From Mucilaginibacter sp. 44-25 (GTDB lineage Bacteria > Bacteroidota > Bacteroidia > Sphingobacteriales > Sphingobacteriaceae), in assembly GCF_001898335.1 (NCBI RefSeq), contig NZ_MKTS01000007.1, forward strand, positions 9,311 to 73,310: 64,000 nucleotides of DNA, written 5' to 3'. The notes beneath the pieces are model-generated. The model was not told where the DNA came from and did not search any database. It saw only the letters and a list, made by a program, of their open reading frames with translations. This document shows, in pieces, positions 10,909 to 57,239 of the stretch (position 1 is its first letter; every line of letters begins with the position of its first letter). Both the position numbers and the translations under genes were made by a program.

Positions 10909-13497
10909 TTAAAACCGGTAGTTAAACGATAAATAATGTATTGACCCTTCGGTTGAAAAGCCTTGTGAATATTGAATTGATATCAGATCGGCGGGATTAA
11001 TAAATATTCCACCACCGTAACCATCATGCCAATTGGAGGATGCCTCACCCGGCACCCAAACACGACCTACATCGTTAAATCCCGTAATACCAATAGATCC
11101 CGGGAAAAGGTAAGAGTTAAAATTGAATACTTTAAGCCTGAATTCTAATCCATTATAGGCCATGCTTTTGCCGGTGAACCGCCATGTATGGTAACCCCTC
11201 AAAGTTTGCAATCCTCCAAGTTTTAACTGCTGAAAGTATTCGGCATTACCTATTGTTGTACCCCAGCCTGTTCTGCCGGCAATAATTAACGTAGAATCGC
11301 CTCCGGGGTTAAGAAAAAAGCTAAACTCTGTAGATAATTGCGCATACTGTTTATGAGCATTATTGAGTTGTTGCAGGCCGGTTACATTAGTTGTCCAGTA
11401 AATGCCTTTGGTAGGGATAACACTGTTACGGGTATCATAGGTAAAACCGGTAATGAATCCGGCGTAGGCACTGCTGGAAAAAACACTTTGATCAGGGTGG
11501 GATTGATCATAAACCTGAAGGAATTTTTGGTTGTTATTGGCGACATTACTGGTGTAATATTGTCCAGCTAAACCCGCATATACAACGAGTTTGTTAAAAT
11601 TGTGCGACAAACTGATATTGGCATTCACCAGATCATACCGGTTGCGATAGTATTCGACGGGCTTTTGCAGATCACCTTTTTCATCGGTGGTATGGTTCTG
11701 CTCAAAAACGGTTTCGTTACCAATGCCAAAAAAGTTATTGACACGGTTGGGGCCCAGCGAGTGTACATTGATGTTAAGGTTATTATTGCCTACAGCCTTT
11801 TTGAAAATGCCCTGGTAGGTTAGCTCAAATGAATGCCTTGCCAACGAATAATTAACTAAAAACTCGTTCCGTGAAGCATATGGCTCTTTTCTGAAACCGT
11901 GCTTAGTAACAGCAAAACCGGCAATTAATGATAGCCCATAATCATTATTATAATTGGCCAGAATAATCGGCTCCGATCGGTCAAACTTGTAATTTTCCCG
12001 GTTGTAGGTATTTACTGCTGTATCGGCAGAAAGTCTTAAAGTAGCTTTAGATTTTCCTGAAATAATATTCTCCTGGTCAGATCGGTCATAAACCGATAGC
12101 CTATGCTTTACATTATCGGCGAAATTAAAGGTATCAACGCCACTACCACCTATTAAACGTATTTTTATAGGCGATTTGCCGGAGCCGGTGACATTAAAAT
12201 CATCATCACCATCAAATCCATATAGTCTTACTTCCTTAGTTTGTTTAGCAATAAACGTTCTGTGGTAAACAAGCTGCTTCTCTTTGTCGCTCTTTGCGAT
12301 TTTATGCACGGTAACATCAATCATGCTGTCTATTAAATAATTGATGTCAAACTTTTCCCGTTTATCAGATGCCGGTATATCCACAATTTTGGCCAAAAAG
12401 TAATAATAGGTCATGCCCCAGTCTGGCATATGATCTCGCCGGGCTTTCATGGTGTTAATGAGTTGGTGTGCCGATAGTGCGTAAATTTTAGGGGGAAGCC
12501 GCTTAAATGCAGCTTCAATTACTTCATTGGTCAGGTGTTGCTGTATGTAGCTGATCTGTTCATGCCAGTCAGCTTCATCTAATCCGTTTAAAAAATACCG
12601 ATCAAAATATTGCGCGTTGATATTCCACGCTTTAACGTCTCTTATGTTTTGTTGGTAGGGTTGGAATTTAGATTTTAACCATTGATGAGCAACAATCCAG
12701 GGAAGTATGCCGGAAGTTTGGTAGTAAACCTGATCGCGGTCGCGAGGTATGGGGGTATAAACTGTCTGCTTCCCATTTTTGTGTTTTTCCCATCTCCATT
12801 GATCTTCATGCCGGTCCCAATCTCCGAGGAGCATATCCAATAACCGGGCCCTCAACACTATTTTTGCATCAAAGGTTACATCATTATCCTCTTTTATTTT
12901 TTTCTGTACCTTAAAGGTGTTGTCGGTCTTAGTAGCATCCTCAGGCTGTCGTTCTTCAAAGAGGTATACTTTGTTCGCGTAGTCTTTTCTATATTCTCCT
13001 AAAGCTTCATCATCAGCAAGGTAAACTATTTCCGGATGGGTATGCTCAATATTCAAAGCCTCTGCAAGAGGAGGAACGGTAAGCGCCGCGAAGGGATTAG
13101 CGGTTGATACCTGGTCCTGCAGAATATCGCGCGCTACAGACTTGCGAAGTTTTGGTGATAAAACCCTTGCGGCATCCTTTTGAACAGAGCGCAAAACCCA
13201 TTCCTGCCCACTTGTATCTTTTAGCCGCAGCGATGATGTTTGCATGCCACCGCCTTTCCGTTCAATTAACAGCCCACCTTTTTCCTTTTGTATATGCAGA
13301 ACCCGTAGTTTAACCGGAACGGCCCAAAGCCTGCGATAATTCTCGCCTAACAATACTCTATGTAATTTGCTTACCCTGTTATATTGCGGCGCAATAGCAA
13401 CGGTAATGCTATCGTTTTTTATGGTTTGTGCGTAGGTAGTTGCACACATGGTTAAAGCCATCACAAACGCTTTTGTTAGTAATAATAAATGCTTCAT
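10909..13497 (-). CDS. Outer membrane protein: atypical kinase-like N-terminal domain + Gly/Asp repeats + Omp85-like beta-barrel (copy A)
   Basis: Signal peptide; GGGMQT, WVLRS, LLDMLLGDWDRHEDQW, PRDRDQ; GFDGDD and GGSGVD repeats; barrel with YDTRN, TLRGYHTWRFTG, FNDVGRVW; ends FNYRF. Confidence 0.8.
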   Translation of the reverse strand: MKHLLLLTKAFVMALTMCATTYAQTIKNDSITVAIAPQYNRVSKLHRVLLGENYRRLWAVPVKLRVLHIQKEKGGLLIERKGGGMQTSSLRLKDTSGQEWVLRSVQKDAARVLSPKLRKSVARDILQDQVSTANPFAALTVPPLAEALNIEHTHPEIVYLADDEALGEYRKDYANKVYLFEERQPEDATKTDNTFKVQKKIKEDNDVTFDAKIVLRARLLDMLLGDWDRHEDQWRWEKHKNGKQTVYTPIPRDRDQVYYQTSGILPWIVAHQWLKSKFQPYQQNIRDVKAWNINAQYFDRYFLNGLDEADWHEQISYIQQHLTNEVIEAAFKRLPPKIYALSAHQLINTMKARRDHMPDWGMTYYYFLAKIVDIPASDKREKFDINYLIDSMIDVTVHKIAKSDKEKQLVYHRTFIAKQTKEVRLYGFDGDDDFNVTGSGKSPIKIRLIGGSGVDTFNFADNVKHRLSVYDRSDQENIISGKSKATLRLSADTAVNTYNRENYKFDRSEPIILANYNNDYGLSLIAGFAVTKHGFRKEPYASRNEFLVNYSLARHSFELTYQGIFKKAVGNNNLNINVHSLGPNRVNNFFGIGNETVFEQNHTTDEKGDLQKPVEYYRNRYDLVNANISLSHNFNKLVVYAGLAGQYYTSNVANNNQKFLQVYDQSHPDQSVFSSSAYAGFITGFTYDTRNSVIPTKGIYWTTNVTGLQQLNNAHKQYAQLSTEFSFFLNPGGDSTLIIAGRTGWGTTIGNAEYFQQLKLGGLQTLRGYHTWRFTGKSMAYNGLEFRLKVFNFNSYLFPGSIGITGFNDVGRVWVPGEASSNWHDGYGGGIFINPADLISIQYSQGFSTEGSIHYLSFNYRF

Positions 13498-13775
13498 GTA
13501 ATGGTTCAGCTAATTAGCTTTAAATATAACTTGCTGTAATTACATTTTACTAATTCATCATAATAATATCCGCTATTATTATATCTATGCGTTATTAGAA
13601 ACTCTTTGTACGTAGTCTGATTTCTTTCCTTCCGGACATACTTATATCGTGGTGTTCACTATCTGAGCAATGGATTGAGCAATAATGGTAGGTTAAGGAA
13701 CTGCTTAACTAAGCTGGGAAGAAATAGTTTTACCGGTATAACCGGGTATATGCCAAAAGCTTACAGAGTAATAAA

Positions 13776-14663
13776 TTATTTTTTTACCGCAGGCTTGTTG
13801 TACGTAAACTTAAGGATGTTACCGTTTTCAAATTCGTCTCCCTCGTTAGAAATATACAGGTTTCCTTCTTTATCAAAAGCGATGCCTTCCGGCTGGGTAA
13901 ATCGCGAGTGCGGAAGCTTGTAGGTTGCTTTTGCGCGCCACTCGGCATCTGTTATCAACAAAAGATTGTTAGTTGCAGAAAGTATGTACCATAGGCCGTT
14001 TACAGGATTTTTAGCGAGTGCTGAGGGATGAAACGCTTCGTCAGCCCCGTTTTTTTTAGATAATTTCGGTAAGGCTATTTGAAAAGTACTCGTCTGCTTC
14101 AAGTTATTTTCATCGGTAGCATCAATTATATAACCGCCGTTTAGTAAACTTCCGTTTTCGGTATTGCAGTCTTTACATAGCACATATATTTTGTTTGTGG
14201 TGTTATCGATATATAATCCTTCGTATTCGGCTTTGGGAAGTATGCCTTTCAGTTGTTGCACATCAGACGGTTTTGGCTGTTTAATTTGCTCAATAGGAAA
14301 AGTAAACAAAGTGCCGTTACTTTTAAGCACGATGATACGGTTGTGAAGAATGCCGATATCCTCATAATCTCCTTGTTTAGCAAAGTGTGTGTAAGCCGGC
14401 TTCCGATCGCCGGGTTTAAAATAAAAAACACGCCCGTCTTCGTCCTGAACGGCATATATGGTATCAGCCTCATTATTCTTAAAAGCGATACCAGAAATTT
14501 CGAGCAGGTTTTCGCTCATTTTAAACCGTTGCGGTTTATCCAGTTGATAACCGGGCGGACTTACTATTTTATCGTTGCCGCTGTCAATACACGCCTGCAG
14601 AAAAATAGATAATAGGGCTATGATCAAAAAAATAGGTCTGTTTAAACAGCGTTGGCTTGACAT
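13776..14663 (-). CDS. SdiA-regulated family beta-propeller lipoprotein (copy A)
   Basis: Lipobox FLQAC; blades EISGIAF, DYEDIG, EYEGLY, FHPSALA, QPEGIAFD..LYISNEG. Confidence 0.8.
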   Translation of the reverse strand: MSSQRCLNRPIFLIIALLSIFLQACIDSGNDKIVSPPGYQLDKPQRFKMSENLLEISGIAFKNNEADTIYAVQDEDGRVFYFKPGDRKPAYTHFAKQGDYEDIGILHNRIIVLKSNGTLFTFPIEQIKQPKPSDVQQLKGILPKAEYEGLYIDNTTNKIYVLCKDCNTENGSLLNGGYIIDATDENNLKQTSTFQIALPKLSKKNGADEAFHPSALAKNPVNGLWYILSATNNLLLITDAEWRAKATYKLPHSRFTQPEGIAFDKEGNLYISNEGDEFENGNILKFTYNKPAVKK

Positions 14664-15892
14664 TAGTGCTTAATATTAACAATCGCGAATATCATGAAAG
14701 CTACAACAGATACAATTAGCCCAAACATGAAAATATTATATGAATATCTTAATAAACGGTATTTATGACCTAAAACAACGCCTTGTGAGTAGATATCCGT
14801 AATAAGGCTATCATAAAGGTATTCACTATCATGCATAACTTTCTGCATACCGGCTTTGTAATTTTCAAGGCTCATGCTGTAAAAATTGCCAAAGAAAAGC
14901 AGGTTTACCTTTTTATTATCTAAATCGCTCTGGGTATAGGTTCCATCGGGTATAGATGGCCTGGTGGCCAGTATAGCAAATATCATGGCGGATAAACTTA
15001 CTGCGATAATAAGTGTGGTGGGTATTACAAAGTAGGGGTGGTCTTCTAACCTGCGCAATAGCAAACTGATGATAGCCGACAATATGATGGAATTAACGGT
15101 GATCATGATATGCGCCTTATTGTCGGCAAGGTCGCTTAACCGCTGATGGTTGGTTGAACTCACCCTGAACATGGTTTGGACACCTTTATCCTGCTTATCC
15201 TCTTTTTTCTCTTTGGCAACTGCCAAGCTTTTAGCGTTTTCTTTAACTTTACTCTTTTTGGCCTCTTGTTTGGCTTGTTTCGGATTGTCAACGTTCCATT
15301 CGTTCTCTTTTTTTACCAGTTCAAGCAGGTTTCTTTGCTTTCCGGCATCCAGCAGCAAACGGCAATAGTCCGTATGGTAACGGTGTTGTTCCATTAGGGC
15401 AATAGTTTTTTGGCGCCATTGATGCTTGCTGATATCATGTCCGATAATGTTAATAGCTTCTTTTCTTAGTGCTTTGCTTTTTTCGCTAAAGTTATCTCCA
15501 CCCAGATGGAAAAGGTCAGCATCGCAAATGATCTGCTCTAAAAATGTTTCCGGCTTTTGAGGCATACGGGTAGCCATAATGCATTTTACTACCTGTTCGG
15601 TCACTTCTTCATCTATAGCGATAGAACGCAGGTAGTTTTGAGCTAAATTGGCACTATGTTGTTCATGTTGGTCAAGGCTTTCCAGATAACCGGTATCATG
15701 AAACCAGGCGGCACTTACTACAATAAAATAATCGGTATCATTTAACTGGTAGTGGTTACCAATTTGCATACACGCGGCCGCTACATCCTCAGTGTGCTGC
15801 TGATCATGGTAAACAAGTTTATGATTATGGTGAGTTTCGAAAAAAGTTAAAACATAGTGTTTAACCTGTTCTAATTGCGATTGATAGCTCAT
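14663..15892 (-). CDS. HD-domain protein fused to a Pycsar-effector-like (PycTM/DUF5706) membrane domain
   Basis: HD metal ligands YH..QHT, AWFHDTG, ICDADL. C-terminus LSDLADNKAHIM + 2 TM + ATRP + NLLFFGNF + HKYRLLRYSY + TM. TAATG stop/start overlap with the next gene. Confidence 0.85.
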   Translation of the reverse strand: MSYQSQLEQVKHYVLTFFETHHNHKLVYHDQQHTEDVAAACMQIGNHYQLNDTDYFIVVSAAWFHDTGYLESLDQHEQHSANLAQNYLRSIAIDEEVTEQVVKCIMATRMPQKPETFLEQIICDADLFHLGGDNFSEKSKALRKEAINIIGHDISKHQWRQKTIALMEQHRYHTDYCRLLLDAGKQRNLLELVKKENEWNVDNPKQAKQEAKKSKVKENAKSLAVAKEKKEDKQDKGVQTMFRVSSTNHQRLSDLADNKAHIMITVNSIILSAIISLLLRRLEDHPYFVIPTTLIIAVSLSAMIFAILATRPSIPDGTYTQSDLDNKKVNLLFFGNFYSMSLENYKAGMQKVMHDSEYLYDSLITDIYSQGVVLGHKYRLLRYSYNIFMFGLIVSVVAFMIFAIVNIKH

Positions 15893-15990
15893 TTATGGTT
15901 TTGATAATAACTGATAAGCGTAAAAGCCCTTAAATGTTTTATAAAATAGATGTGTACGATGATGGTATCGTGTAGGTTTTGTCTATAAAA

Positions 15991-16473
15991 TTAGTTTTTG
16001 TTTTCCAAACCTTTAGGAAACCTATCAGCAATTAGGTTAAGCTTTACCCCAAACTCCAGCCATGCCTTAAGCCCGGCTAACACCAAAGTAAAGCCACCAG
16101 TTGCATCTATTACACTTTTCATTTGTTCATCCTTGCTGCCTTTAAATCCTGAATTGATGATCTGTACAAATGTAGCAGTATCAGTTACTGCGGTAAATTT
16201 CCATTCAACAATTGTAGGCGTTTCGCTGCCCCACTCAAGTACAATAAGTTTATTGCGTTCAAAGGCTTTAACCTTTACAGGAATAGAGTGACCATACATT
16301 TCCCATGTCCATGTCAAATCTGCATCTGGCTGTATTTTTCCGGTGCTATGGGTAAACCAAAACTGGGTGGTGTGTTTAGGGTCGCATACGGCATCAAAAA
16401 CTTTACCTGCCGGCCTGTGTATAAGCATACCGGTATCAGCAACAGGTCCTCTTGCAGCGGATTGTTTTTTCAT
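15991..16473 (-). CDS. SRPBCC/AHSA1 (YndB-like) ligand-binding protein
   Basis: IHRPAGKVFDA..DP..TTQFWFT, TIVEWKF, STGGFTLVLAGLKAWLE-type signature (here ATGGFTLVLAGLKAWLE). Confidence 0.88.
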   Translation of the reverse strand: MKKQSAARGPVADTGMLIHRPAGKVFDAVCDPKHTTQFWFTHSTGKIQPDADLTWTWEMYGHSIPVKVKAFERNKLIVLEWGSETPTIVEWKFTAVTDTATFVQIINSGFKGSKDEQMKSVIDATGGFTLVLAGLKAWLEFGVKLNLIADRFPKGLENKN

Positions 16474-16554
16474 GAGAGTAAATTTAAGTTAATTTTTGAT
16501 ACAACGATGCATCCCTGCATCCTACAACACTTGTGTCGCATTTATACCGGTATA

Positions 16555-16570
16555 TTGTCATTTATGACAA
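16555..16570. promoter_or_regulatory. Palindromic operator candidate between divergent SRPBCC and DoxX genes
   Basis: TTGTCA-TTTA-TGACAA perfect inverted repeat, upstream of a TAAATTTG -7 element at 16594-16601. Confidence 0.45.
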
Positions 16571-16647
16571 CTTCTCTTGAAGCCTTTTCAGTTTAAATTT
16601 GCGTTATGAGGTTTATACATTAAATTAGTAACATACCAAACCTAAAT

Positions 16648-17013: not shown

Positions 17014-17034
17014 TATTAGATAGGAAAACCTGTT

Positions 17035-17071
17035 TAAAAATAAAGCCGTACCCCATCGCGACGTACGGCTT
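17035..17071 (-). terminator. Intrinsic terminator between convergent DoxX gene and efflux operon
   Basis: AAGCCGTAC-N11-GTACGGCTT (17043-17071), followed by a T-rich run on the minus strand. Confidence 0.75.
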
Positions 17072-17105
17072 CAATCATTAAAACACGAGTAGAAACAAAA
17101 CTATC

Positions 17106-18551
17106 TTATCTCCAGCCACCTCCAAGAGCACGGTAGAGGTTTACTTCGCTTATAAATACATCTCTTTTGATATTGGCTAATTCCAGCTCGGCCGTCAGTA
17201 CATCTCGTTGCGCGGTAATTACTTCCAGATAGTTGGCGCGGCCTACCACGTAAAGGTCATTGGCCACGCTAACCGCGTTTTTAAGTGCACGCACCTCCAG
17301 CTTTTTTTGCTCAAAATACTTGCTGTAGTTTTCCATGCCTTTGAGGTTATTGATCACTTCCTGGTACCCGTTCAAAACAGTTTTTTGATAATTGAATAGT
17401 GCCGCTTTGCCTTCGGCTATTCTTGAGGCATATTCTGCCTTTAAGCGACCACGATTAAGTACGGGTGCTGTAACATCTGCCAGTAAACCATAAACAGCAG
17501 ATCCCGGATTGAAAAGTAGCGCTCCTTTAAAGGCATTATAGCCGATATATGGAGATAATGTAAGGGACGGAAAAAATGCGGCACGGGCACTTTTAATATC
17601 AGCATTCAACGCGGCTAATTCCAATTCTGCCTGTTTCACATCCGGGCGGTTAAGCAGCATTTGGGTTGGTACGCCGGTTTTTAGCTTCTCCGGCATCGTT
17701 AACGTTAACAGGGAAGTATCACGTTCAATTGTTCCGTTAAATGATCCCGTAAGTAAACGCAATTGGTTCTCCGTTTCTATGATCTGTTGTGCCGTGCTGT
17801 ATTGTAAACCGCGTGTGTGGCTCAGTTGGGCCTCAAATTGCTGCACCGCCAGTTCGGTAGCCCTGCCGCCTAACTTTTGCACCTTAACTATTTCAAGCGC
17901 GTTTTCCTGCAGTTTGATGTTCTTATTGATCACATTCTGCTCCACCTCAAGTGTTAAAAGTTGATAATAGGCAGTAGCAATCTGGCCCGTTAACTCCGTG
18001 GTAAGCAAACGATAGGCACTGCGCGATGCCAGGAAACGCGCCAGGGCGGCATTCTTCTGGTTTTTTAATTTGCCCCACAAGTCAACTTCCCATGATGCCC
18101 TGAAGCCTAAAAACAAGTCGGCGGTAGGGTTGGGGATGCGTTGCTTATCATTGATGTTTGGCGATAGGTTGGTATCGTAGTTACCAACGCCGTTCATGGT
18201 ATAATCTCCATAACGCTCCAAACCTGCACGAGCATTGAAGTTGACCGTTGGCAGCAACAGCGATTTGTTGAACTTTACGTTTGCCGCAGCCATATCAATG
18301 CGCTGCAAAGCCGATTGCAGATCGGGATTTGCCCTTAAAGCGGTGTCTATCAGTTTCAGCAAACGGGCATCTTTAAAAAAACTTGCAGCAGGCAGGTAAC
18401 CTGCGTTTAATGTATCGGTACTGCCATCAAACGTTGCCGGCAAAGGCTCATTTGTTTTCGGCTCGATAGGTTTAAAAGTTTTACACCCTGCCGCCACAAC
18501 CAGCAGCAGGAGTAAAACCGATTTGTATATAGTTGATTGTTTGACGTGCAT
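17106..18551 (-). CDS. RND efflux outer membrane factor (NodT/OprM family lipoprotein)
   Basis: Lipobox VAAGC, ALRANPDL, WEVDLWGKL, RPDVKQAE, AAFFPSL, LYRALGGGW. Confidence 0.95.
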   Translation of the reverse strand: MHVKQSTIYKSVLLLLLVVAAGCKTFKPIEPKTNEPLPATFDGSTDTLNAGYLPAASFFKDARLLKLIDTALRANPDLQSALQRIDMAAANVKFNKSLLLPTVNFNARAGLERYGDYTMNGVGNYDTNLSPNINDKQRIPNPTADLFLGFRASWEVDLWGKLKNQKNAALARFLASRSAYRLLTTELTGQIATAYYQLLTLEVEQNVINKNIKLQENALEIVKVQKLGGRATELAVQQFEAQLSHTRGLQYSTAQQIIETENQLRLLTGSFNGTIERDTSLLTLTMPEKLKTGVPTQMLLNRPDVKQAELELAALNADIKSARAAFFPSLTLSPYIGYNAFKGALLFNPGSAVYGLLADVTAPVLNRGRLKAEYASRIAEGKAALFNYQKTVLNGYQEVINNLKGMENYSKYFEQKKLEVRALKNAVSVANDLYVVGRANYLEVITAQRDVLTAELELANIKRDVFISEVNLYRALGGGWR

Positions 18552-18552
18552 T

Positions 18553-21500
18553 TTAATTTACATTTTCAGGAACTTCAATTAGGTGGTGAGATGTCTCTGG
18601 TGCCGGCTTTTTATTTTGGCCGATGGATGCGAAGATCACATAAAGGCCGGGGATAAGGATAAGCCCGAAGACGGTACCGAAGAGCATACCCCCGGCAGCA
18701 GCGGTACCAATAGATCGGTTACCTAATGCGCCCGCACCACTCGCGATACAAAGCGGTATTAAACCCGCAACAAAGGCCAGGGAAGTCATCAGGATAGGGC
18801 GCATACGTGACACGGCACCTTCTACCGCTGCTTGTAAAACGGTTAATCCTTCGCGCTGGCGCTGCACAGCAAATTCTATGATGAGGATGGCGTTCTTTCC
18901 TAATAAACCAATGAGCATAACCAGTGCTACCTGCGCGTAGATGTTATTCTCGAGACCTAATATCTTGAGGAAGAAAAACGCCCCGAAGATACCTGTAGGT
19001 AAGGAGAGAATAACAGGAATTGGCAACAGGAAGCTCTCATATTGTGCAGACAACAGCAGGTAAACGAATATTAAACAGATAATGAAGATATATATCACCT
19101 GGCTACCGGAGAGGATCTGCTCCCTCGTCATGCCCGACCATTCAAATGTATAGCCTTTTGGCAGGCTTTTATCGGCAACGGCTTTAATGGTACTGATGGC
19201 ATCACCGCTACTATAACCAGGCGCGGCGTCACCCGTTACCATGGCCGATGTGTACATGTTGTAACGCGTTAGCTGCTCGGGGCCAAAAACACGTTTCATG
19301 CTGATGAAGGTAGAGAACGGTACCATTTCGCCGTGCTTGTTCTTGATCATCAGTTGGAGAACATCCTCAGGTTTGGTACGAAACTCAGGCGATGCCTGTA
19401 CCATTACCTTATACAGCTGCCCAAAACGGATGAAGTTTGAGGCATAAAAACTACCCATGAGCGTTTGCAGGGTAGACATGGCTTCATCAATGGTGATACC
19501 TTTCTTGGCGGCCATCACCTGGTCAACCGATATCATGTACTGCGGGAAGTTAGCATCAAAACTACTGAATGAGCCATCTACCTGTTCGGTAGCATTTAGA
19601 TCGGCAAGGAACTTATTGGTTACCGCGGCTGTTTTCTGCAGATCGCCGGTACCTGTTTTATCCAGCACCCGTATCTCAAAACCGCTGGAATTACCAAAGC
19701 CCGGTACTGTAGGCGGCGGGAAGAACTGTATAGAAGCATCAGTTAAATACTTAGTCTTCTGCGTTAACTCTTCGGTTATTTTAGCAATGGATTTGTCGCG
19801 TTTTTCCCAAGGCTTCAGGTTGATCATCACCATACCGTATGATGCACCTGCAACGCTGTTCACCAGGCTGTAACCGGCAAGGGTAGATACCGATTCAATT
19901 TCGGGAATATGTTTGCTTTGCGCTTGTATGGCCGACATTATCTGCTCAGTACGCTCTACAGTTGCGCCGGGTGGGGTGGTGATGTTGGCGTAGATAACGC
20001 CCTGGTCTTCTGTTGGAATAAAACCGGTTGGTAAAATGGCACTCAAGCCCCATGTAGCCGCCAAAAAGAATAGTAGCATGGCAACGGTAATTATTCTCCG
20101 ACCGGCAATACGCGTAATAAGGCCCGAGTATTTGTTTTGAATACCATCGTAGCGTTTGTTAAAGCCGGTAAAGAACCTGCCGAGTAATCCTTTTGATGGC
20201 TTGCTGGCATCGTGCGGCTTTAACATTAGGGCACAAAGGGCAGGGGTAAGGGTTACCGCATTAACACCGGATATTACAATGGATATTGCCAGCGTTAGTG
20301 AGAACTGCCGGTAGAACACGCCAACCGGCCCGGTCATAAACGCCACCGGCACAAACACTGCCGACATTACCAGTGTAATAGCGACGATGGCTCCGCTGAT
20401 GCTTTTCATGGCACTTAGGGTGGCATCCATTGGCGACAAATGTTCTTCGGCCATTTTTACGTGTACAGCTTCAACTACCACAATAGCGTTATCCACTACA
20501 ATACCAATGGCGAGCACCAGCGCAAACAATGTAAGCAGGTTAATAGAGAAGCCAAGCATCTGCATAAAAAACAACGTACCTATCAGGGCCACAGGTACCG
20601 CCAATGCCGGTATCAGCGTTGAGCGGAAGTCCTGAAGGAAAAGGTACACCGCAATAAACACCAGTATAAATGCCTCAACCAATGTGCGCAAAACCTCATG
20701 GATGGATGCATCAAGAAAGCGGGATACGTCGTAATTGACATTATACTCCATGCCGGATGGAAACTGCGTTTCCTTTAACTCGGCCATGCGGTTTTTGATG
20801 TTGTTGATCACCTCTCGGGCGTTGGAGCCGGGCCGCTGTTTGATCATGATAGACGCCGATGGGCGGCCATCTGTCTTGGAGATCATACCGTAGGTTAAAG
20901 CACCAAACTCTACATCAGCAACCTGATATAATTTAAGTACGGTACCGCTGCTGTCTGCACGCAATACGATATTCTTGTATTGGTCCGGCTCAAAAAATTT
21001 ACCGGGATAACGTAAGGTATATTGCAGCAACTGCGGCGATTTATCGGAGCTTTGCCCGGTAGAACCCGGCGCAGCCTCTACGTTTTGCGCGCGGATAGCG
21101 GCAATAACCTCATCGGTAGAGATATGGTAGGCCGACATACGATCGGGTTTAAGCCAAACACGCATGGCGTATTCTTTGGCACCCATGATCTCGGCACGGC
21201 CAACACCGTCTATTCTTTTAAGCTCCTGTAAAACGTTAATATCTGCAAAGTTGTAAATGAACTTCTCGTCGAGCGTGCTGTCCTTACTCATTACGTTAAG
21301 GTACATCAGCATACTGTTTACCTCTTTCTCGGTAGTTACGCCGGCTTTAATAACCTCCTCGGGTAACTCATCAATAATAGTGGAAACACGGTTCTGCACG
21401 TTTACCGCCGCCTGGTCTGGGTCGATACCTACATTAAAGAATATCTCGATAACCGTTAGCCCGTTGTTGCTACACACGGTACTCATGTAGGTCATGCCGG

Positions 21501-21717
21501 GTACGCCGTTAATGGCGCGCTCCAGCGGGGTTGCCACGGCCTTGGCACAAACTTCGGCGTTGGCACCGGTATAGTTGGCCGTTACTGTTACGGATGGCGG
21601 CACAATATCCGGGAATTGGGTTACTGGTAACTGTATCAGTGCCAGTACGCCCAACAGCGTTATAATAAGAGAAATGACCAGTGATAACACCGGTCGTTTT
21701 ATGAAAACTTCAAACAT
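18553..21717 (-). CDS. RND efflux permease (HAE1, AcrB/MexB family)
   Basis: FIKRPV, QFPDIVPP, AIGIVVDNAIVVVE, GKNAILIIEF, RMRPILMTS; 1054 aa. Confidence 0.97.
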   Translation of the reverse strand: MFEVFIKRPVLSLVISLIITLLGVLALIQLPVTQFPDIVPPSVTVTANYTGANAEVCAKAVATPLERAINGVPGMTYMSTVCSNNGLTVIEIFFNVGIDPDQAAVNVQNRVSTIIDELPEEVIKAGVTTEKEVNSMLMYLNVMSKDSTLDEKFIYNFADINVLQELKRIDGVGRAEIMGAKEYAMRVWLKPDRMSAYHISTDEVIAAIRAQNVEAAPGSTGQSSDKSPQLLQYTLRYPGKFFEPDQYKNIVLRADSSGTVLKLYQVADVEFGALTYGMISKTDGRPSASIMIKQRPGSNAREVINNIKNRMAELKETQFPSGMEYNVNYDVSRFLDASIHEVLRTLVEAFILVFIAVYLFLQDFRSTLIPALAVPVALIGTLFFMQMLGFSINLLTLFALVLAIGIVVDNAIVVVEAVHVKMAEEHLSPMDATLSAMKSISGAIVAITLVMSAVFVPVAFMTGPVGVFYRQFSLTLAISIVISGVNAVTLTPALCALMLKPHDASKPSKGLLGRFFTGFNKRYDGIQNKYSGLITRIAGRRIITVAMLLFFLAATWGLSAILPTGFIPTEDQGVIYANITTPPGATVERTEQIMSAIQAQSKHIPEIESVSTLAGYSLVNSVAGASYGMVMINLKPWEKRDKSIAKITEELTQKTKYLTDASIQFFPPPTVPGFGNSSGFEIRVLDKTGTGDLQKTAAVTNKFLADLNATEQVDGSFSSFDANFPQYMISVDQVMAAKKGITIDEAMSTLQTLMGSFYASNFIRFGQLYKVMVQASPEFRTKPEDVLQLMIKNKHGEMVPFSTFISMKRVFGPEQLTRYNMYTSAMVTGDAAPGYSSGDAISTIKAVADKSLPKGYTFEWSGMTREQILSGSQVIYIFIICLIFVYLLLSAQYESFLLPIPVILSLPTGIFGAFFFLKILGLENNIYAQVALVMLIGLLGKNAILIIEFAVQRQREGLTVLQAAVEGAVSRMRPILMTSLAFVAGLIPLCIASGAGALGNRSIGTAAAGGMLFGTVFGLILIPGLYVIFASIGQNKKPAPETSHHLIEVPENVN

Positions 21718-21756
21718 GTTTACTATTGCTAATAATTACATCAAAATAGGAAAGAC

Positions 21757-22902
21757 TTACTCGTCTTGCGCTTTCATGGCAAGCAGGTTTTTGGGCGGCG
21801 CAACTGGTTTAATGGTCATACCGTCGCGGGCGTTTTGGGCACCCTCCAACAGTATGCGTTCTCCGGGTTTAAGGCCATCCTTTACCACGTAGTAGCTGGC
21901 TAAACGGGTAATGGGCTTAAATGCCTGCATGTGTAATTTATTAGCAGCGTCTACCGTGTAAACGTAGCTTTTGTCCTGTATATCAAATACGGCTTGCTGC
22001 GGCAGCAATATCACACTATCCATTTCTGTAGTGATGTATAGCTTGGCCGATGCGCCGTGTCTTAGTAATTTGTTTGGGTTGGGGAAACGTGCCCTGAAAT
22101 CTATTGAGCCTGTGCTTTGTTCTATCTGCCCCTCAACGGTTTCTATCTTACCGGGATGGTTGTATTTACTGCCATCAGATAGTACAAGTTTTACTTGCTC
22201 ATCATCTTGCTTGGTTACATTCCGGCGTGCGCGTTCATAACGCAGGTATTCTGTTTCGGGAAAGCTGAAATAGGCAAATACTTCGCTTATGTCACTAATA
22301 TCGGTTAGGAGTGTGCCTTCTTCAACAAGGCTTCCGGCTTTAAGTGGTATACGGTCAATAATGCCATCAAACGGTGCGCGAATGCTGGTATAGGCAATAT
22401 GATTATTGGCACTTTGAACAGCGCTTTGGGCTTCCTCAATCGTTGCCCTGTCCGCATTCAATTTGGCTTCGGCAACATCTAATTCTGATTTTGAGATCAC
22501 ATTTTTATTAACCAATATTTTGATGCGTTCCATTTCTACCTCCGTAGCCCGGGCAGCGGCACGGGCATTGCTTAATGCAGCCTTCGCCTTGCTTAGCATC
22601 ACGCGAAACTCTTCATCATTTATTTTGAACAGGAGTTGGCCTTTTTTAACGGCCATGCCTTCGTCTACAAATATCTTTTCTAAAAAGCCTTTAACACGGG
22701 TACGTACCTCTACGTTTTTAATGGCCTGTATATCGGCTACGTAACCGGTTTGTAAAACGGTATCAGTTTGTTTAAGTGTATAAACCGGAAAGCTTGGTGC
22801 TTCTTCTTTCTTTTTGTCGCTGGCGTTACCACCTGCGCATCCGTATATAAGTACTGTTAAAACCGCCAGCATATTATACACCGGCGCATATGATTTTTTC
22901 AT
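21757..22902 (-). CDS. RND efflux membrane fusion protein (periplasmic adaptor)
   Basis: Lipobox IYGC, VEVRTRVKGFLEK, IRAPFDGII, RARFPNP..LLRHG. ATG 22902 preferred over the longer ORF start. Confidence 0.95.
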   Translation of the reverse strand: MKKSYAPVYNMLAVLTVLIYGCAGGNASDKKKEEAPSFPVYTLKQTDTVLQTGYVADIQAIKNVEVRTRVKGFLEKIFVDEGMAVKKGQLLFKINDEEFRVMLSKAKAALSNARAAARATEVEMERIKILVNKNVISKSELDVAEAKLNADRATIEEAQSAVQSANNHIAYTSIRAPFDGIIDRIPLKAGSLVEEGTLLTDISDISEVFAYFSFPETEYLRYERARRNVTKQDDEQVKLVLSDGSKYNHPGKIETVEGQIEQSTGSIDFRARFPNPNKLLRHGASAKLYITTEMDSVILLPQQAVFDIQDKSYVYTVDAANKLHMQAFKPITRLASYYVVKDGLKPGERILLEGAQNARDGMTIKPVAPPKNLLAMKAQDE

Positions 22903-22990
22903 TTTAATAATTGCTGTAATTAAATATTTAAAACGGCTTAGCCGCAAGAGCAGGAAAATACTGCAAGGAGCAGTGTTTAATTACAGCAGA

Positions 22991-42156: not shown

Positions 42157-42354
42157 ATAGTCTATCAATGTTAACAACTTTTACACTCAGGTACTATTAG
42201 CTACGGTGATATACACACTGAAACTTTACATCTATTAAACCCCAACCTATTTAGCGCCATGTACTATAATAATACAAGAACAACCGACACAATATACATC
42301 AGCAGCTTAAAGGCTGCACTCACATCAAGTAAATCATCATCAAAACTCATCATC

Positions 42355-43482: not shown

Positions 43483-43654
43483 GTAGAATTAAGAGCCGGG
43501 AATCAGGAACCAAGACTCTTGATTCTTATCTCTGACTTCATTCTCAAAACGAAAACAAAGAACCGGGAATTAAGGAACATACACGTTAATTATAGATGGG
43601 AAATACCATCCGTTAGCCACTGCTTTGTCCTCAAATTCCGCAATAATTAATATA

Positions 43655-46600
43655 ATGTTTAAGAAATTTATAGAAAGGCCGGTACTCTCAACCGTTATCT
43701 CTATCCTGTTGGTGATAGTCGGTATCCTCGGCCTTACCAAATTGCCCTTAGAGCGTTTCCCTAATATTGCCCCTCCGGCCGTATTGGTATCTGCTGTTTA
43801 CCCGGGCGCTAACGCCGAAACCATTTTGCGTTCGGTAACCCCTTCACTTGAAGAAGCCATTAACGGTGTAGAGAACATGACCTATATGACCTCTACTGCA
43901 AGTAATGATGGTACGCTGGGTATTACTGTTTATTTTAAACAAGGTACCGACCCGGACCAGGCTGCCGTTAATGTGCAGAACCGTGTTTCGCAAGCTACCA
44001 GCCAGTTACCTGCCGAGGTAGTGCAATACGGTATTACCACCACCAAACAGCAGAACAGCTTTATTGGTGCCATGGCAATATATACTGATGATCCTAAAAA
44101 ATATGATGCAACCTTTGTAGCAAACTATGCCCAGATCAACATCATACCCGAGATCAAACGTATCCCCGGTGTAGGTTCGGCACAGGTATTTGGTGGTGTT
44201 AAAGATTACAGCATGCGTGTTTGGTTGAATCCTGCGCAGATGGCTGCCTACAAAATTACCCCGGCCGAGGTAATGGCCGCTATACAGGATAAAAACTTAG
44301 AAGCTGCACCGGGCCGTTTTGGGGAACGCAGCGATAAGGCTTTTGAATATGTGATCAAGTACAAAGGTAAACTCACCAAACCAGAGGAGTATCAGAATAT
44401 TGCCATACGCGCTAATGCAGATGGTTCTGTACTGCACTTGAAAGATGTGGCACGTGTTGAGCTGGGCGCTTACTCATACAACAGCTACAGTAACCTGAAT
44501 GGTAAAGATGGTGTTATCATCGGTATTATCCAGTTATCAGGCTCTAATGCCAACGAGATACAGATAGCCATTGATAAACTGATGGAGAAAGCATCCAAAA
44601 GTTTCCCTGTGGGTATCAAGTACAATCAGTTCTACCGAACCAAAACAGATTTGGATGAATCTATTAACCAGGTTGAGCATACCCTGATAGAGGCATTCAT
44701 ACTGGTATTTATCGTGGTGTTCTTGTTCTTACAGGATTTCAGGTCGACATTAATACCGGCAATTGCGGTACCGGTGGCTATTGTGGGTACGTTTTTCTTT
44801 ATGAGCCTGTTCGGGTTCTCCATTAACCTGCTTACGCTATTCGCGCTCGTTCTTGCTATAGGGATTGTGGTAGATGACGCCATTGTGGTGGTAGAAGCCG
44901 TGCATGCCAAAATGGAGCACGACCCAAGCCTTACGCCAAAGAAGGCTACTACCGAAGCCATGCACGAAATTACCGGCGCAATCATCTCGATCACGTTGGT
45001 GATGGCAGCAGTGTTCCTGCCAGTAAGTTTCATGACAGGCTCAACTGGCATTTTCTACCGTCAGTTTGCCTTGACCATGGCTATTGCTATCATCATATCT
45101 GCGGTAAACGCGTTAACACTTAGCCCTGCTCTGGCTGCTCTGTTTTTAAAGAATAACCATACAGGTGGTAACCATAATGCGCCGAAGCAAGGTTTTGTAC
45201 AAAGGTTTTATGCAGGCTTTAACGGCAGCTTTAACTACATGACAAACAAATATGTGTCGGGTATTAAAGTGCTGATCAAAAATAAATGGATTAGTGTTGC
45301 CGGTTTAGTTTTATTAACCGCCATTACCATATTTATGGTGAACAGGACTAAAACAGGCTTTATCCCTACCGAAGACCAGGGCTTTGTGGCCATTGCGGTG
45401 TCAACGCCATCGGGTACATCGCTTGCAGGTACTAACAAGATTTTTAAAGATGCTGAAGACCAGTTGAAAACCCTGCCATCTGCAAGGTTCGTTACTGCGC
45501 TATCAGGTTTCAACTTCTTAACGCAATCAAGCAGCCCATCAGCGGGTGTTATATTCCTGCTGTTGAAACCTACCGAAGAACGTGGCGAAGTAAAGAACAT
45601 CGACGAGATACAGAATATCGTTCGTGGTAAATTAGGCGCTGTAACAGGTGGTACTTTCTTCGTGTTCAGTTTCCCTACAGTGCCCGGTTTCAGCAACGTG
45701 GAAGCGCTTGACGTAATGCTGCAAGATAAGACCAACGGCAAGCTGGACAAATTCAGTGGGGTGGCTAATAATTTCATCATGAAGCTGATGCAAAAACCAG
45801 CTGTGGCTTATGCCTTTACCTCATACAAGGCAGATTATCCACAATTGCAATTAGAGATCGACGACGAAAAAGCCAACCAATTGGGTGTGAATGTAAAAGA
45901 CATCCTATCTACTATGCAGGCTTACTTTGGTACCGCGCAGGCATCAGACTTTAACCGCTTTGGTAAATACTACCGTGTGGTTGTACAAGCTGATATTGCC
46001 GATCGCACCGACCCTACAACTATCGACCGTGTATTCGTGAAAAACAAAGCAGGCGAAACCGTGCCTATCAACACCCTGGTTAAACTAACCCGTGTTTATG
46101 GCTCAGAAACCGCCTCCAGGTACAACCTGTTCAACTCTATTGAGGTGAACGCCATACCAAAACCCGGCTACAGTTCCGGTGATGCCATCAAAGCGATTGA
46201 GGAAACCGCTAAAGAGGAATTACCTGCTGGTTATGCCTACGAATTCTCAGGCCAAACCCGTGAGGAGATCTCATCAGGCGGACAATCAACCGTAGTGTTC
46301 CTTCTATGTTTAGTATTCGTGTATTTCCTGTTATCAGCACAGTATGAAAGCTACATCCTGCCATTGGCGGTTATCCTGTCTATCCCTACAGGTATCTTCG
46401 GTACGTTTGCTGTATTGGGCTTAACCGGTATCGAGAATAATATTTACGTGCAGGTAGCGCTTATCATGCTTATCGGCTTGCTGGCCAAGAATGCTATTTT
46501 GATAGTAGAGTTCGCGGTGCAGAAACGCCGCCAGGGAATGAGCTTGGTTAACGCTGCAATAGAAGCTTCCCGACTAAGGATCCGTCCTATCGTGATGACC

Positions 46601-46855
46601 TCACTCGCCTTCGTGTTCGGTTTGTTCCCGATGAGTATTGCAACAGGTCCATCAGCTCAAGGTAACCACTCTATAAGTATTGGTGCTGCCGGCGGTATGG
46701 TGAGCGGTGTAATTTTAGGTTTGTTTATCATCCCGGTATTGTTTGTCATCTTCCAGCATCTGCAGGAAAAGATAAGCGGTACACCGATAGAGAAACACCT
46801 TGATGGTGCCAATGAGGACCAACATGCAAAACAATTGGAACCGGAATTATCATAA
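43655..46855 (+). CDS. RND efflux permease (HAE1 family)
   Basis: FIERPVLS, FPNIAPP, AIGIVVDDAIVVVE, LAKNAILIVEF, RIRPIVMTS. Confidence 0.97.
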   Translation: MFKKFIERPVLSTVISILLVIVGILGLTKLPLERFPNIAPPAVLVSAVYPGANAETILRSVTPSLEEAINGVENMTYMTSTASNDGTLGITVYFKQGTDPDQAAVNVQNRVSQATSQLPAEVVQYGITTTKQQNSFIGAMAIYTDDPKKYDATFVANYAQINIIPEIKRIPGVGSAQVFGGVKDYSMRVWLNPAQMAAYKITPAEVMAAIQDKNLEAAPGRFGERSDKAFEYVIKYKGKLTKPEEYQNIAIRANADGSVLHLKDVARVELGAYSYNSYSNLNGKDGVIIGIIQLSGSNANEIQIAIDKLMEKASKSFPVGIKYNQFYRTKTDLDESINQVEHTLIEAFILVFIVVFLFLQDFRSTLIPAIAVPVAIVGTFFFMSLFGFSINLLTLFALVLAIGIVVDDAIVVVEAVHAKMEHDPSLTPKKATTEAMHEITGAIISITLVMAAVFLPVSFMTGSTGIFYRQFALTMAIAIIISAVNALTLSPALAALFLKNNHTGGNHNAPKQGFVQRFYAGFNGSFNYMTNKYVSGIKVLIKNKWISVAGLVLLTAITIFMVNRTKTGFIPTEDQGFVAIAVSTPSGTSLAGTNKIFKDAEDQLKTLPSARFVTALSGFNFLTQSSSPSAGVIFLLLKPTEERGEVKNIDEIQNIVRGKLGAVTGGTFFVFSFPTVPGFSNVEALDVMLQDKTNGKLDKFSGVANNFIMKLMQKPAVAYAFTSYKADYPQLQLEIDDEKANQLGVNVKDILSTMQAYFGTAQASDFNRFGKYYRVVVQADIADRTDPTTIDRVFVKNKAGETVPINTLVKLTRVYGSETASRYNLFNSIEVNAIPKPGYSSGDAIKAIEETAKEELPAGYAYEFSGQTREEISSGGQSTVVFLLCLVFVYFLLSAQYESYILPLAVILSIPTGIFGTFAVLGLTGIENNIYVQVALIMLIGLLAKNAILIVEFAVQKRRQGMSLVNAAIEASRLRIRPIVMTSLAFVFGLFPMSIATGPSAQGNHSISIGAAGGMVSGVILGLFIIPVLFVIFQHLQEKISGTPIEKHLDGANEDQHAKQLEPELS

Positions 46856-46859
46856 ATTA

Positions 46860-46946
46860 ACTCACCCGGTCTACGCTTCGCTCGACCAACCTCTCTCCGC
46901 TTTGCGGAAAGAGGGTAAAATCAGCCAAGGCGTCGTCGGGGTGAGT
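46860..46946. repeat. REP/MITE-like palindromic element inside the efflux operon
   Basis: Terminal inverted repeats ACTCACCC...GGGTGAGT enclosing the hairpin CCTCTCTCCGC-TTT-GCGGAAAGAGG. Confidence 0.65.
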
Positions 46947-46964
46947 CCTCAACACAACAACAAA

Positions 46965-48374
46965 ATGAAAAAGATATTAAGCGGGCTATTTGTATTATCA
47001 CTAATCATAAGCGCCTGCAACGTTTCCAAAGACGTTAAAACACCAAAACCTGAACTGCCTGTGGCTTTCAGAAACGAAGTAACCACTGCAGATACCAGCA
47101 GTATTGCAGATGTCGAGTGGAAAAACTTTTTTGCTGATGCAACTTTGCAAAAGCTGATAGACGATGCAATCCGCAACAACTATGACTTGCAGATCGCGTT
47201 GAAAAATATTGAATCGTCACGGTTATTGTTCAACCAGATCAAGTTTAATTACACCCCGCAGGTAAACCTTAACGTTACCGCCAACACCACCCGCCCAAGT
47301 GATAACAGCCTTAACGGCTTAAGCCTTGGTCAGTTTCTTGGCTCAAAACATATAGAGGATTACAATGCCAACCTTGGCTTATCATGGGAGGCCGATATCT
47401 GGGGTAAGATCCGCAATCAAAGCAGGGCCGCTTTAGCGCAGTATTTGCAAACAGATGAGGCGCGTAAGGCCATTCAAACTAACATAGTCGCATCCGTTTC
47501 TCAAGGTTACTATAACCTGCTGATGCTGGATGAGCAGTTGCAAATTGCTAAACGCAATGTAACACTAACTGATAGCACACTGCGTATTTTAAACCTGCAA
47601 TTTAATTCAGGACAGGTTACTTCATTGGCCGTTCAGCAAGCCGAGGCACAACGCCTGGCAGCTGCACAACTGGTTCCGGAATTTGAACAGAACATCACGA
47701 TACAGGAAAATGCCTTACGCGTACTTGCAGGTGCCTTGCCTTCCGCAATTGAGCGCAATACCCGTTTAGATCAATTGCCTGTTGCAGAAAATGTGCCTTC
47801 AGGCTTGCCATCAGCCATTGTGAGCCGTAGGCCGGATGTGCGCAGCGCAGAACTGGAGCTTAACGTTGCTAATGCTAACGTAGGTATTGCTGCCGCTAAT
47901 ATGTACCCTTCACTTACCATTACTGCGCAAGGTGGTGTAAACTCCTTCAGGGCCAGCAACTGGTTCAGCCTGCCTGCTTCTTTATTTGGTACGGTGGCCG
48001 GTAGTATTACACAACCGATATTCAACCGCAAAAGGTTAAAAACCCAATACGAAGTGGCTAAGGTTGAACGCGAAAAAACTGTGCTACAGTTTCGTCAATC
48101 GGTATTAAACGCCGTTGGCGAAGTATCAGATGCATTGGTAAAAATAGAAAAGCTTAAAGCGCAACAAGCCATTGCTGCCAACAGGGTAAAAACCTTGCAG
48201 CAGGCAACCGGCAATGCTAACCTGCTGTTTAAAAACGGTATGGCCAATTACCTTGAGGTGATAACCGCTCAAAGTAACGTATTGCAAAGCGAACTGGAAC
48301 TGGCTTCCATTAAGCGCCAGCAGCTAAGCGCCTTGGCAGAGCTTTATCGCTCGCTTGGTGGTGGCTGGAAATGA
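46965..48374 (+). CDS. RND efflux outer membrane factor (NodT/OprM family lipoprotein)
   Basis: Lipobox IISAC, AIRNNYDL, WEADIWGK, RRPDVRSAE, LYRSLGGGW. ATG 46965. Confidence 0.95.
   Translation: MKKILSGLFVLSLIISACNVSKDVKTPKPELPVAFRNEVTTADTSSIADVEWKNFFADATLQKLIDDAIRNNYDLQIALKNIESSRLLFNQIKFNYTPQVNLNVTANTTRPSDNSLNGLSLGQFLGSKHIEDYNANLGLSWEADIWGKIRNQSRAALAQYLQTDEARKAIQTNIVASVSQGYYNLLMLDEQLQIAKRNVTLTDSTLRILNLQFNSGQVTSLAVQQAEAQRLAAAQLVPEFEQNITIQENALRVLAGALPSAIERNTRLDQLPVAENVPSGLPSAIVSRRPDVRSAELELNVANANVGIAAANMYPSLTITAQGGVNSFRASNWFSLPASLFGTVAGSITQPIFNRKRLKTQYEVAKVEREKTVLQFRQSVLNAVGEVSDALVKIEKLKAQQAIAANRVKTLQQATGNANLLFKNGMANYLEVITAQSNVLQSELELASIKRQQLSALAELYRSLGGGWK

Positions 48375-57239: not shown

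Follow-up and report, generated by a model that had tools for sequence, protein, structure and literature searches.

Two loci of Mucilaginibacter sp. 44-25 encoding an HD-PycTM protein, a second polyphosphate kinase and Omp85 barrels: parts of a Bacteroidota gene cluster with a possible role in envelope phosphate physiology

Two groups of genes about 33 kb apart were analysed in a 64,000 nt stretch of the Mucilaginibacter sp. 44-25 genome (contig NZ_MKTS01000007.1), referred to here as the window. Locus A consists of three genes, all co-directional on the minus strand. Locus B consists of five, three on the minus strand and two divergent on the plus strand. The two loci are very probably pieces of one conserved, chromosomally inherited Bacteroidota cluster that works as one functional module. 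All eight genes named in a first-pass annotation of the window are present as open reading frames (ORFs) with matching coordinates:

10909–13497, minus strand: Omp85A, 862 aa; NCBIfam Omp85_fam, E 1.2e-26, below cut-off
13776–14663, minus strand: PropA, beta-propeller lipoprotein (SdiA-regulated/NHL/phytase-like), 295 aa; PF06977, 32.3 bits against a cut-off of 21
14663–15892, minus strand: HD-PycTM, 409 aa; PF18967, E 5.9e-34, 117.1 bits against a cut-off of 27.2
48442–51018, minus strand: Omp85B, 858 aa; PF01103, 38.8 bits against a cut-off of 24
51034–51885, minus strand: PropB, second propeller lipoprotein, 283 aa; PF06977, 28.9 bits
51882–53930, minus strand: PPK1b, second polyphosphate kinase 1; TIGR03705, 669.8 bits against a cut-off of 465.85
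54120–54734, plus strand: PAP2-family membrane phosphatase, divergent from PPK1b; PF01569, E 1.6e-21
54864–57239, plus strand: GAF791, cytoplasmic sensor protein, 791 aa; GAF_2, E 7e-4, below cut-off

The two loci share a propeller/Omp85 gene pair, as had been proposed, and the shared genes are paralogues: PropA and PropB share 47 % identity, and Omp85A and Omp85B, which have the same architecture, share 38 % from end to end. Both propellers carry a lipobox (LQAC in PropA, MVSC in PropB), and the signal peptides of both Omp85 proteins end in YAQ. The translational overlaps described for each locus can also be read in the sequence. The stop codon of HD-PycTM and the start codon of PropA share TAATG, and the start codon of PropB and the stop codon of PPK1b share ATGA. 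The module spans the cytoplasm (GAF791, PPK1b and the HD domain), the inner membrane (the three-transmembrane, or 3TM, domain and PAP2) and the periplasm and outer membrane (propeller and Omp85).

The relationship between the loci is evident from other genomes. A first set of neighbourhoods, approximately 17 kb each, surrounded the HD-PycTM orthologues of 20 genomes from the same family. In the majority of them HD-PycTM, PPK1, propeller and Omp85 form an uninterrupted co-directional run next to a GAF791 homologue. A locus from the same genus (L034) reads Omp85B<PropB<PPK1<HD-PycTM with GAF791 divergent. The species-representative genomes scanned contain at least 577 related loci, and the best 80 of these belong to the Sphingobacteriaceae, Chitinophagaceae, Spirosomataceae plus other Cytophagales, and Saprospiraceae. 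Linkage was counted over the 61 loci, drawn from these four groupings, that had complete 10-kb flanks, and the following were found within 10 kb of HD-PycTM:

Kinase-like Omp85 (OmpN): 56/61 loci
GAF791: 55/61 loci
Propeller: 51/61 loci
PPK1: 46/61 loci, always as the next gene downstream
Metallophosphoesterase (MPE) domain: 42/61 loci

PAP2 is an occasional member, lying within the same distance in 13/61 loci. The linkage persists though gene order varies by lineage, as in the divergent arrangement of Chitinophaga. Most relatives carry all cluster genes as one tight operon. In Dyadobacter jiangsuensis, for example, the order is GAF791-HDPycTM-PPK1-Prop-MPE.Omp85, with successive junctions of 24, 11, -1 (a 1-nt overlap) and 18 nt.

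Phylogenetic profiles across 101 Sphingobacteriaceae genomes gave the same picture. HD-PycTM of the type found in the window (group 1) is present in 28 genomes, all of which also encode GAF791, and GAF791 is found in 29 genomes altogether. GAF791 thus occurs in 28/28 genomes with HD-PycTM and in 1/73 without it (Fisher p 4e-24, uncorrected for phylogeny). The first-pass annotation had argued that the shared propeller/Omp85 core connects an orphan effector, HD-PycTM, to a putative cyclase, GAF791, and that a lack of co-occurrence or adjacency of these two proteins in other genomes would speak against it. The comparison has now been made; with GAF791 near HD-PycTM in 55 of the 61 loci and encoded in every one of the 28 genomes, the connection is supported.

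The loci could instead be functionally independent, locus A being a self-sufficient triad and locus B an unrelated PPK1/propeller/Omp85 operon that happens to stand beside PAP2 and a GAF protein. They are 33 kb apart with unrelated genes between them, and a minimal triad without PPK1 or GAF791 does exist in many genomes. It is encoded around a second group of HD-PycTM proteins (group 2, ~33 % identical), where a divergent propeller and an MPE-kinase-like-Omp85 gene are present in 12/12 loci and none of the 12 has PPK1, GAF791 or a cyclase. However, HD-PycTM of the window falls in the PPK1/GAF791-linked group 1 and not in the minimal group 2, the genome has one PycTM gene, and relatives join exactly this gene set around one HD-PycTM, some of them with both Omp85 types. 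Independence of the loci is therefore considered extremely improbable. The arrangement in the window, shared with a 98 %-identical relative (G078), is a derived split of the cluster. Its gene set is the same as that of, for example, M. lappiensis (L119), except that the propeller is duplicated.

Since the group-2 loci lack PPK1, GAF791 and a cyclase, the core of the system is taken to be the triad, with PPK1, GAF791 and PAP2 making up an extended version. The triad comprises HD-PycTM in the inner membrane, a propeller lipoprotein in the periplasm or on the surface, and an outer-membrane Omp85 barrel that carries a conserved, probably kinase-like domain.

HD-PycTM begins with a cytoplasmic HD phosphohydrolase domain (aa 1 to ~200; DNA 15293–15892), followed by a Lys/Glu-rich linker and a PycTM / pJV1-SpdB3-type 3TM domain (aa ~250–409; DNA 14666–15145). 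The H...HD...D metal ligands place the first part in the HD phosphohydrolase superfamily; they are intact, and H29/H33, H65-D66, H76 and D124/D126 are conserved in 17 orthologues. PF01966 (HD) is itself seen in a group-2 paralogue, just below cut-off. In profile searches the HD part matches YedJ (3gw7, E 7e-6), and HD proteins of the YedJ type, themselves uncharacterised, are its closest relatives of solved structure. The second part belongs to the PycTM / pJV1-SpdB3 3TM effector family. It has three hydrophobic transmembrane (TM) segments (259–282, 286–314 and 383–409), and aa 250–405 match both the PADLOC PycTM model (E 2.8e-16) and CBASS 2TM effector models. Invariant polar residues, including those of the cytoplasmic loop, are kept among the orthologues. 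HD-PycTM gives the single PF18967 match of the genome and is thus its sole PycTM gene.

Separate HD and PycTM relatives are also encountered. A large Bacteroidota family (f23, e.g. loci L225 and L226) has only HD-less PycTM proteins of ~190–215 aa, which are 41–46 % identical to the C-terminal half of HD-PycTM. The single class III cyclase gene of this genome, a REC-cyclase of 349 aa, is on another contig (C4:190262–193011), where two convergent genes face it, one for a stand-alone HD paralogue (195 aa; 34 % identity with the HD part) and one for a membrane protein of 291 aa. The HD paralogue was considered as an operon partner of this cyclase and rejected, the genes being convergent; the arrangement is kept as a hint only. 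In another genus (G033) the HD match lies in an open frame of ~490 aa, possibly an HD-membrane fusion, just downstream of a 349-aa cyclase ORF, and at one locus (L156) a REC-cyclase lies 5 kb from HD-PycTM.

Canonical class III cyclases also occupy the cluster itself. Genes matching PF00211 adjoin HD-PycTM in Fulvitalea, Marinoscillum, genome G001 and four families (f11, f16, f33 and f94); among these cases is a Sphingobacteriaceae genus in which a ferredoxin-cyclase gene overlaps the start of HD-PycTM. In Fulvitalea the RefSeq labels read ‘Pycsar system effector family protein’ followed by ‘adenylate/guanylate cyclase domain-containing protein’. Six of the cluster cyclases form one orthologous group with 30–45 % identity, and the cluster-associated canonical cyclases match PycC models. 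They occur in the cluster only where GAF791 is absent, replacing it in at least six other lineages, and no locus has both. This alternation is read as non-orthologous displacement of a cyclase function, and the canonical cyclases beside HD-PycTM tie that protein to cyclic-nucleotide signalling. In the genome studied here, no gene of locus A or B matches PF00211 or PycC, and the only PF00211 cyclase gene is on another contig.

In GAF791 a PAS/GAF-like domain (aa 1–230) and a GAF domain (aa ~245–395; DNA 55596–56048) come first. A long signalling helix connects them to an alpha/beta domain of cyclase-homology-like type (aa ~436–775; DNA 56169–57188), which is interrupted after strand 1 by a helical insert of ~130 aa (aa 459–591). 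The secondary-structure elements of the AlphaFold2 (AF2) model (pLDDT 83.9) follow an order that suits a cyclase-homology domain carrying an insert. Foldseek searches were run with full-length models of GAF791 and Omp85A. For GAF791 they returned a phytochrome-regulated adenylate/guanylate cyclase (6fht, E 1.2e-7), human soluble guanylate cyclase (E 3.1e-5 to 1.9e-4, including 6jt0 at 3.1e-5 and 8hbe at 1.5e-4) and the guanylyl cyclase domain of Cya2 alone (2w01, E 7.6e-4, TM 0.53); a cAMP-binding GAF domain was matched as well. Residues invariant in the GAF791 family are D455 within DIxG[ST][ST], TDGxE at 601–605, D674-E675, N685 and R687. The motif FDVxGxYNxR...KKRIDK is also invariant. Together with DIxG[ST][ST] and TDGxE, the latter in the hairpin, it is placed where catalytic residues are expected, though the geometry is non-canonical. 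GAF791 resembles sensor-regulated class III cyclases (6fht, soluble guanylate cyclase, Cya2) in its predicted PAS/GAF-GAF, signalling-helix and beta-alpha-beta-beta-alpha-beta order, in having DIxG[ST][ST] on the first strand and in having an Asn-bearing helix after the FDVxG turn. It differs from them in its helical bundle after strand 1, in the position of the second metal Asp and the Asn/Arg spacing, and in the absence of PF00211 or any profile signal. The proposal that GAF791 is a cyclase draws on this predicted fold and, most strongly, on gene displacement. The ‘GAF/cyclase-like’ label of the first-pass annotation may stand as a description of predicted fold, but not as one of sequence. 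At least 2,994 database proteins (representatives of 90 %-identity clusters) match GAF791, and most of the named ones are labelled simply ‘GAF domain-containing protein’.

Several observations weigh against control of the cluster by a cyclase-made nucleotide and against its everyday role in the envelope. GAF791 and 31 homologues have no cyclase match in Pfam at E<=10, including PF00211, and a cyclase match for GAF791 is likewise absent from NCBIfam, PADLOC, and PDB phmmer and profile searches. Alignment with hhalign against 31 Bacteroidota and 10 cluster cyclases was negative both with and without the insert. The putative second metal Asp is shifted (TDGxE), and the Arg follows N685 at +2 rather than +4. 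Lone GAF791 homologues occur on plasmid pHIC of Haliovirga abyssi (32 % identity; L206) and on a plasmid of Chondrinema litorale (39 %; L227). Neither has cluster genes nearby, and the Fusobacteriota homologue adjoins transposases. The minimal triad, having no cyclase gene nearby, indicates that a dedicated cyclase is not obligatory. The link between the HD domain and hydrolysis of a cyclic nucleotide monophosphate (cNMP) comes from gene neighbourhood alone, the closest solved relatives being uncharacterised. By its topology the PycTM domain exposes almost nothing to the periplasm, leaving a physical coupling to the outer-membrane parts without an explanation. The distribution of the cluster is patchy (28/101 genomes, 14/37 genera), as that of an accessory or defence-like trait would also be, and the effector family otherwise serves in immunity. 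Set against these points is the alternation of GAF791 with canonical cyclases, and on balance second-messenger control of the cluster by a nucleotide is modestly favoured. The split cyclic-nucleotide circuit first suggested for the two loci gains independent support from this alternation; GAF791 does not bring to it a cyclase recognisable by sequence.

The obvious comparison is with Pycsar and Pucsar antiphage systems of the TM type, in which a class III cyclase (PycC/PucC) is paired with a PycTM/PucTM effector of the pJV1-SpdB3 3TM family (bioRxiv 10.64898/2026.08.12.744502). That source treats the 3TM family solely in company with Pycsar/Pucsar cyclases and does not mention HD domains, GAF domains or polyphosphate. 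No paper describing the cluster was found in the literature, and searches on DUF5706, on PycTM with an HD domain, and on polyphosphate kinase with Omp85 and Bacteroidetes returned nothing. As in Pycsar and Pucsar, a cyclase-type gene (GAF791 or a canonical PF00211 cyclase) is genetically tied to the effector, and stand-alone PycTM and CBASS 2TM effectors can be aligned end to end with the last 160 aa of HD-PycTM. Unlike them, the effector is fused to an intact HD hydrolase. Its main partner is not recognisable as a cyclase by sequence, and no PycC lies adjacent to it in the window. In place of a two-gene module there is a cluster of five to seven genes with PPK1, propeller, Omp85 enzyme-barrel and PAP2, which is chromosomal, follows taxonomy and lies outside defence islands.

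The cluster could accordingly be viewed as an enlarged abortive-infection system of the Pycsar/Pucsar kind, in which the cyclase or cyclase-like protein responds to phage infection by making a cNMP, permeabilisation of the membrane by the PycTM domain follows, and the remaining genes play accessory parts. The strong PF18967 and PADLOC PycTM/2TM matches are what such a system would show, as are the recurrent cyclase-type partners that match PycC models and the patchy distribution within the family; the RefSeq name of the gene is also ‘Pycsar system effector family protein’. However, a PPK1 paralogue and outer-membrane enzymes are foreign to known Pycsar and CBASS loci, a fused HD hydrolase would counteract a suicide signal, and minimal triads do without a cyclase. 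The HD-PycTM tree follows taxonomy, clustering by family with 10 label changes against 27 when shuffled (0/200 shuffles as low). No defence or mobile genes were found near the loci in the window, whose remaining genes have ordinary functions (RND efflux, cytochrome bd, Na/H antiporter, MscS and a phytochrome two-component system). The remaining cluster proteins gave only one match to defence models, a weak PLD-type DrmC match in PPK1. No cluster match was found in 50,697 phage records, and plasmid matches were confined to large non-mobilizable replicons of Bacteroidota and one Fusobacteriota. Abortive infection is accordingly judged very unlikely.

The first-pass annotation had left the choice between defence and phosphate or stress physiology open. 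The clustering of the HD-PycTM tree by family, the ordinary neighbours, the PPK1 paralogue and the envelope phosphatases disfavour the former and favour phosphate/envelope physiology. A hydrolase fused to its effector also suits a reversible signal. A role in phosphate- or polyphosphate-linked physiology rather than in defence is thus considered likely, and the cluster looks like everyday envelope/phosphate signalling that is conserved across soil Bacteroidota.

Type Vd patatin autotransporters such as PlpD are enzyme-barrels of the Omp85 superfamily. Omp85A and Omp85B are 16-strand Omp85 barrel proteins; in Omp85A the barrel forms the C-terminus (aa ~507–862; DNA 10912–11979), and the whole model matched BamA barrels in the PDB (E 1.7e-11) and only these, the barrels swamping any fold match of the N-domain. 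They share with BamA/TamA and the Omp85 enzyme-barrels a 16-strand C-terminal barrel, with enzyme-like domains N-terminal to it. Unlike BamA and TamA, they have an all-beta linker without POTRA-like alpha/beta units. No POTRA domain N-terminal to the barrel was matched in Pfam or predicted in the AF2 model (pLDDT 80.4), in which the linker of Omp85A (aa ~371–500) contains no helices. Within this linker, aa ~420–470 (window ~12090–12240) contain GGxGxD-like repeats (LYGFDGDDDFNVTG and LIGGSGVDTFNF) that recall calcium-binding beta-rolls.

Also unlike BamA and TamA are a family-less, kinase-like N-domain and, in relatives, an N-terminal MPE. The N-domain (aa ~25–370 of Omp85A; DNA ~12388–13425) is highly conserved, with GDWDRHxDxWRW and PRDRD invariant. 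No family was matched to it in Pfam, NCBIfam, PADLOC or PDB profile searches, and 32 members of the Omp85 family have no match to PF08757 (CotH). Alignment with hhalign against 28 CotH sequences was weak (P 0.0013, or 0.03 with a larger alignment, against 0.11–0.42 for controls), yet it pairs GDWDRHxDxW and PRDRD exactly with the CotH catalytic-loop and metal-binding motifs. Against viral models, Foldseek placed several Ser/Thr kinases below the barrels (E 0.27–0.47, also weak). The domain may resemble the CotH/Fam20-type atypical secreted kinases in its motifs, but no significant structural or profile match was found; a source of ATP outside the cytoplasm would also be unexplained. The ‘kinase-like’ description used in the first-pass annotation gains these weak motif and fold matches but no family, and a kinase-like nature is considered plausible from the sequence motifs and models. 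Orthologues of Omp85B in most other genera are ~1200 aa long because a calcineurin-like MPE (PF00149, above cut-off) precedes the conserved N-domain. The MPE is a separate 360-aa ORF in three loci of relatives, and no MPE domain of this PF00149 type was found anywhere in the genome studied here. Omp85A is the type without MPE, which in relatives usually follows GAF791.

PPK1b is a polyphosphate kinase 1 by its equivalog model, scored above cut-off, and by the presence of all four PPK domains (PF13089, PF02503, PF17941 and PF13090). The genome has in addition a housekeeping ppk1-ppx pair (contig C1:186407–189346), whose ppk1 product is 39–41 % identical to PPK1b; the gene beside it is PPX/GppA-like, as recognised by its N-terminal sequence only. 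Of the 101 Sphingobacteriaceae genomes, 98 carry a PPK1 of the housekeeping type and 26 carry one of the cluster type. PPK1b is thus a second, cluster-dedicated paralogue. It is full length, as in a ppk1-ppx operon, but lacks the ppx partner of such an operon; in the cluster it is coupled to HD-PycTM on its upstream side and to the propeller on its downstream side. In one relative (genome G037, contig C19, locus L038, 9211–14778 on the plus strand), PPK1 and the MPE-kinase-like-Omp85 form one uninterrupted frame of 1855 aa, in which an internal Met followed by a signal peptide marks the junction; PPK1 either lacks its stop codon here or contains the start of the second gene within its frame. 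The PAP2 protein is most similar in NCBIfam to undecaprenyl-diphosphatases, below cut-offs.

All of the enzymatic components handle phosphate esters or anhydrides, and the cluster could therefore serve phosphate scavenging and storage with no nucleotide signal. MPE, the phytase-like propeller and PAP2 would free external phosphate and PPK1b would store it, while GAF791 would be a non-cyclase regulator and HD-PycTM a membrane-anchored phosphohydrolase. The failure of GAF791 in every sequence test for cyclases would be expected under this explanation, as would minimal triads without cyclases. Left unaccounted for, however, are the canonical class III cyclases of several architectures that replace GAF791 and the retained PycTM-type domain with its invariant cytoplasmic-loop residues. 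Additionally, no phosphate transporter, TonB receptor or Pho regulator was found in the loci examined. Scavenging of this kind is considered rather unlikely.

On balance, the reading that fits best is a housekeeping envelope phosphate/polyphosphate system under cyclic-nucleotide control; it is held with modest confidence, the function being deduced from the genes. Gene content, paralogy, linkage, co-occurrence, the second PPK1 and the alternation of GAF791 with canonical cyclases are directly visible in the genomes; the enzymatic activity of GAF791, the substrate of the HD domain, the membrane event and the physiological role are all inferred. Under this housekeeping reading, the GAF domains of GAF791 would sense a ligand, upon which a cyclic or related nucleotide would be made. 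The nucleotide would act on the PycTM domain as cNMPs act on Pycsar/Pucsar TM effectors, and the fused HD domain would destroy the signal, keeping the membrane response brief and non-lethal. In the envelope, the Omp85-anchored enzyme domains, the propeller and PAP2 would perform phosphoryl chemistry, to which the response would couple polyphosphate made by PPK1b at the inner membrane. This chain of four steps, from the signal at GAF791 to the envelope, is tentative.

A bolder version, which is possible but doubtful, makes the cluster a trans-envelope apparatus for the supply of polyphosphate or phosphoryl groups, with an oligomer of the PycTM domain as a cyclic-nucleotide-gated polyanion conduit. 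PPK1b would make polyphosphate at the inner membrane, the fused HD domain would shut the conduit off, and the kinase-like and MPE domains, the propeller and PAP2 would use or trim the polyphosphate as phosphoryl donor in an envelope free of ATP. The 3TM family takes its name from a Streptomyces plasmid-spread protein thought to handle DNA. If the conduit version were true, the ‘2TM/3TM’ suicide effectors of Pycsar and CBASS would have a physiological gated channel as their ancestor or their sister.

The PycTM/3TM module, until now known only as a phage-defence suicide effector, gains a conserved and taxonomically clustered chromosomal relative. The relative comes with a fused hydrolase and with cyclase partners of its own, and so bears on the origin of immune effectors. 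The large GAF791 family may represent cryptic nucleotide cyclases. A second, dedicated polyphosphate kinase wired to outer-membrane enzymes makes testable the long-standing question of how phosphoryl groups or energy are supplied to processes beyond the inner membrane, and the cluster may matter for phosphorus cycling by soil Bacteroidota.

Other features of the window border the two loci. The gap between PropA and Omp85A (13498–13775) is 278 nt, against only 15 nt between PropB and Omp85B; thus locus A may have an internal promoter or terminator. No riboswitch was found in the window by Rfam. An AHSA1/SRPBCC gene (15991–16473, minus strand) is the next gene upstream of HD-PycTM, and its conservation is limited to G078, the near-identical relative; a DUF4920 gene (57294–57767, plus strand) lies directly downstream of GAF791. 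Paralogous RND efflux operons adjoin both loci (17106–22947, minus strand, by locus A; 42259–48374, plus strand, by locus B). Each encodes an MFP, an AcrB-like protein (1054 and 1076 aa, 48 % identity) and a TolC-like protein (481 and 524 aa, 37 %). A segmental duplication that included these operons was considered and set aside, their proximity being regarded as coincidence, as they are oriented differently relative to the loci. Between the loci, a phytochrome photosensory protein (PAS_2-GAF-PHY; 28380–29909, minus strand) directly abuts, with no base between the two genes, a downstream CheB-CheR-PAS-histidine kinase of 1616 aa with a GTG start at 28379, the pair occupying 23529–29909 on the minus strand.

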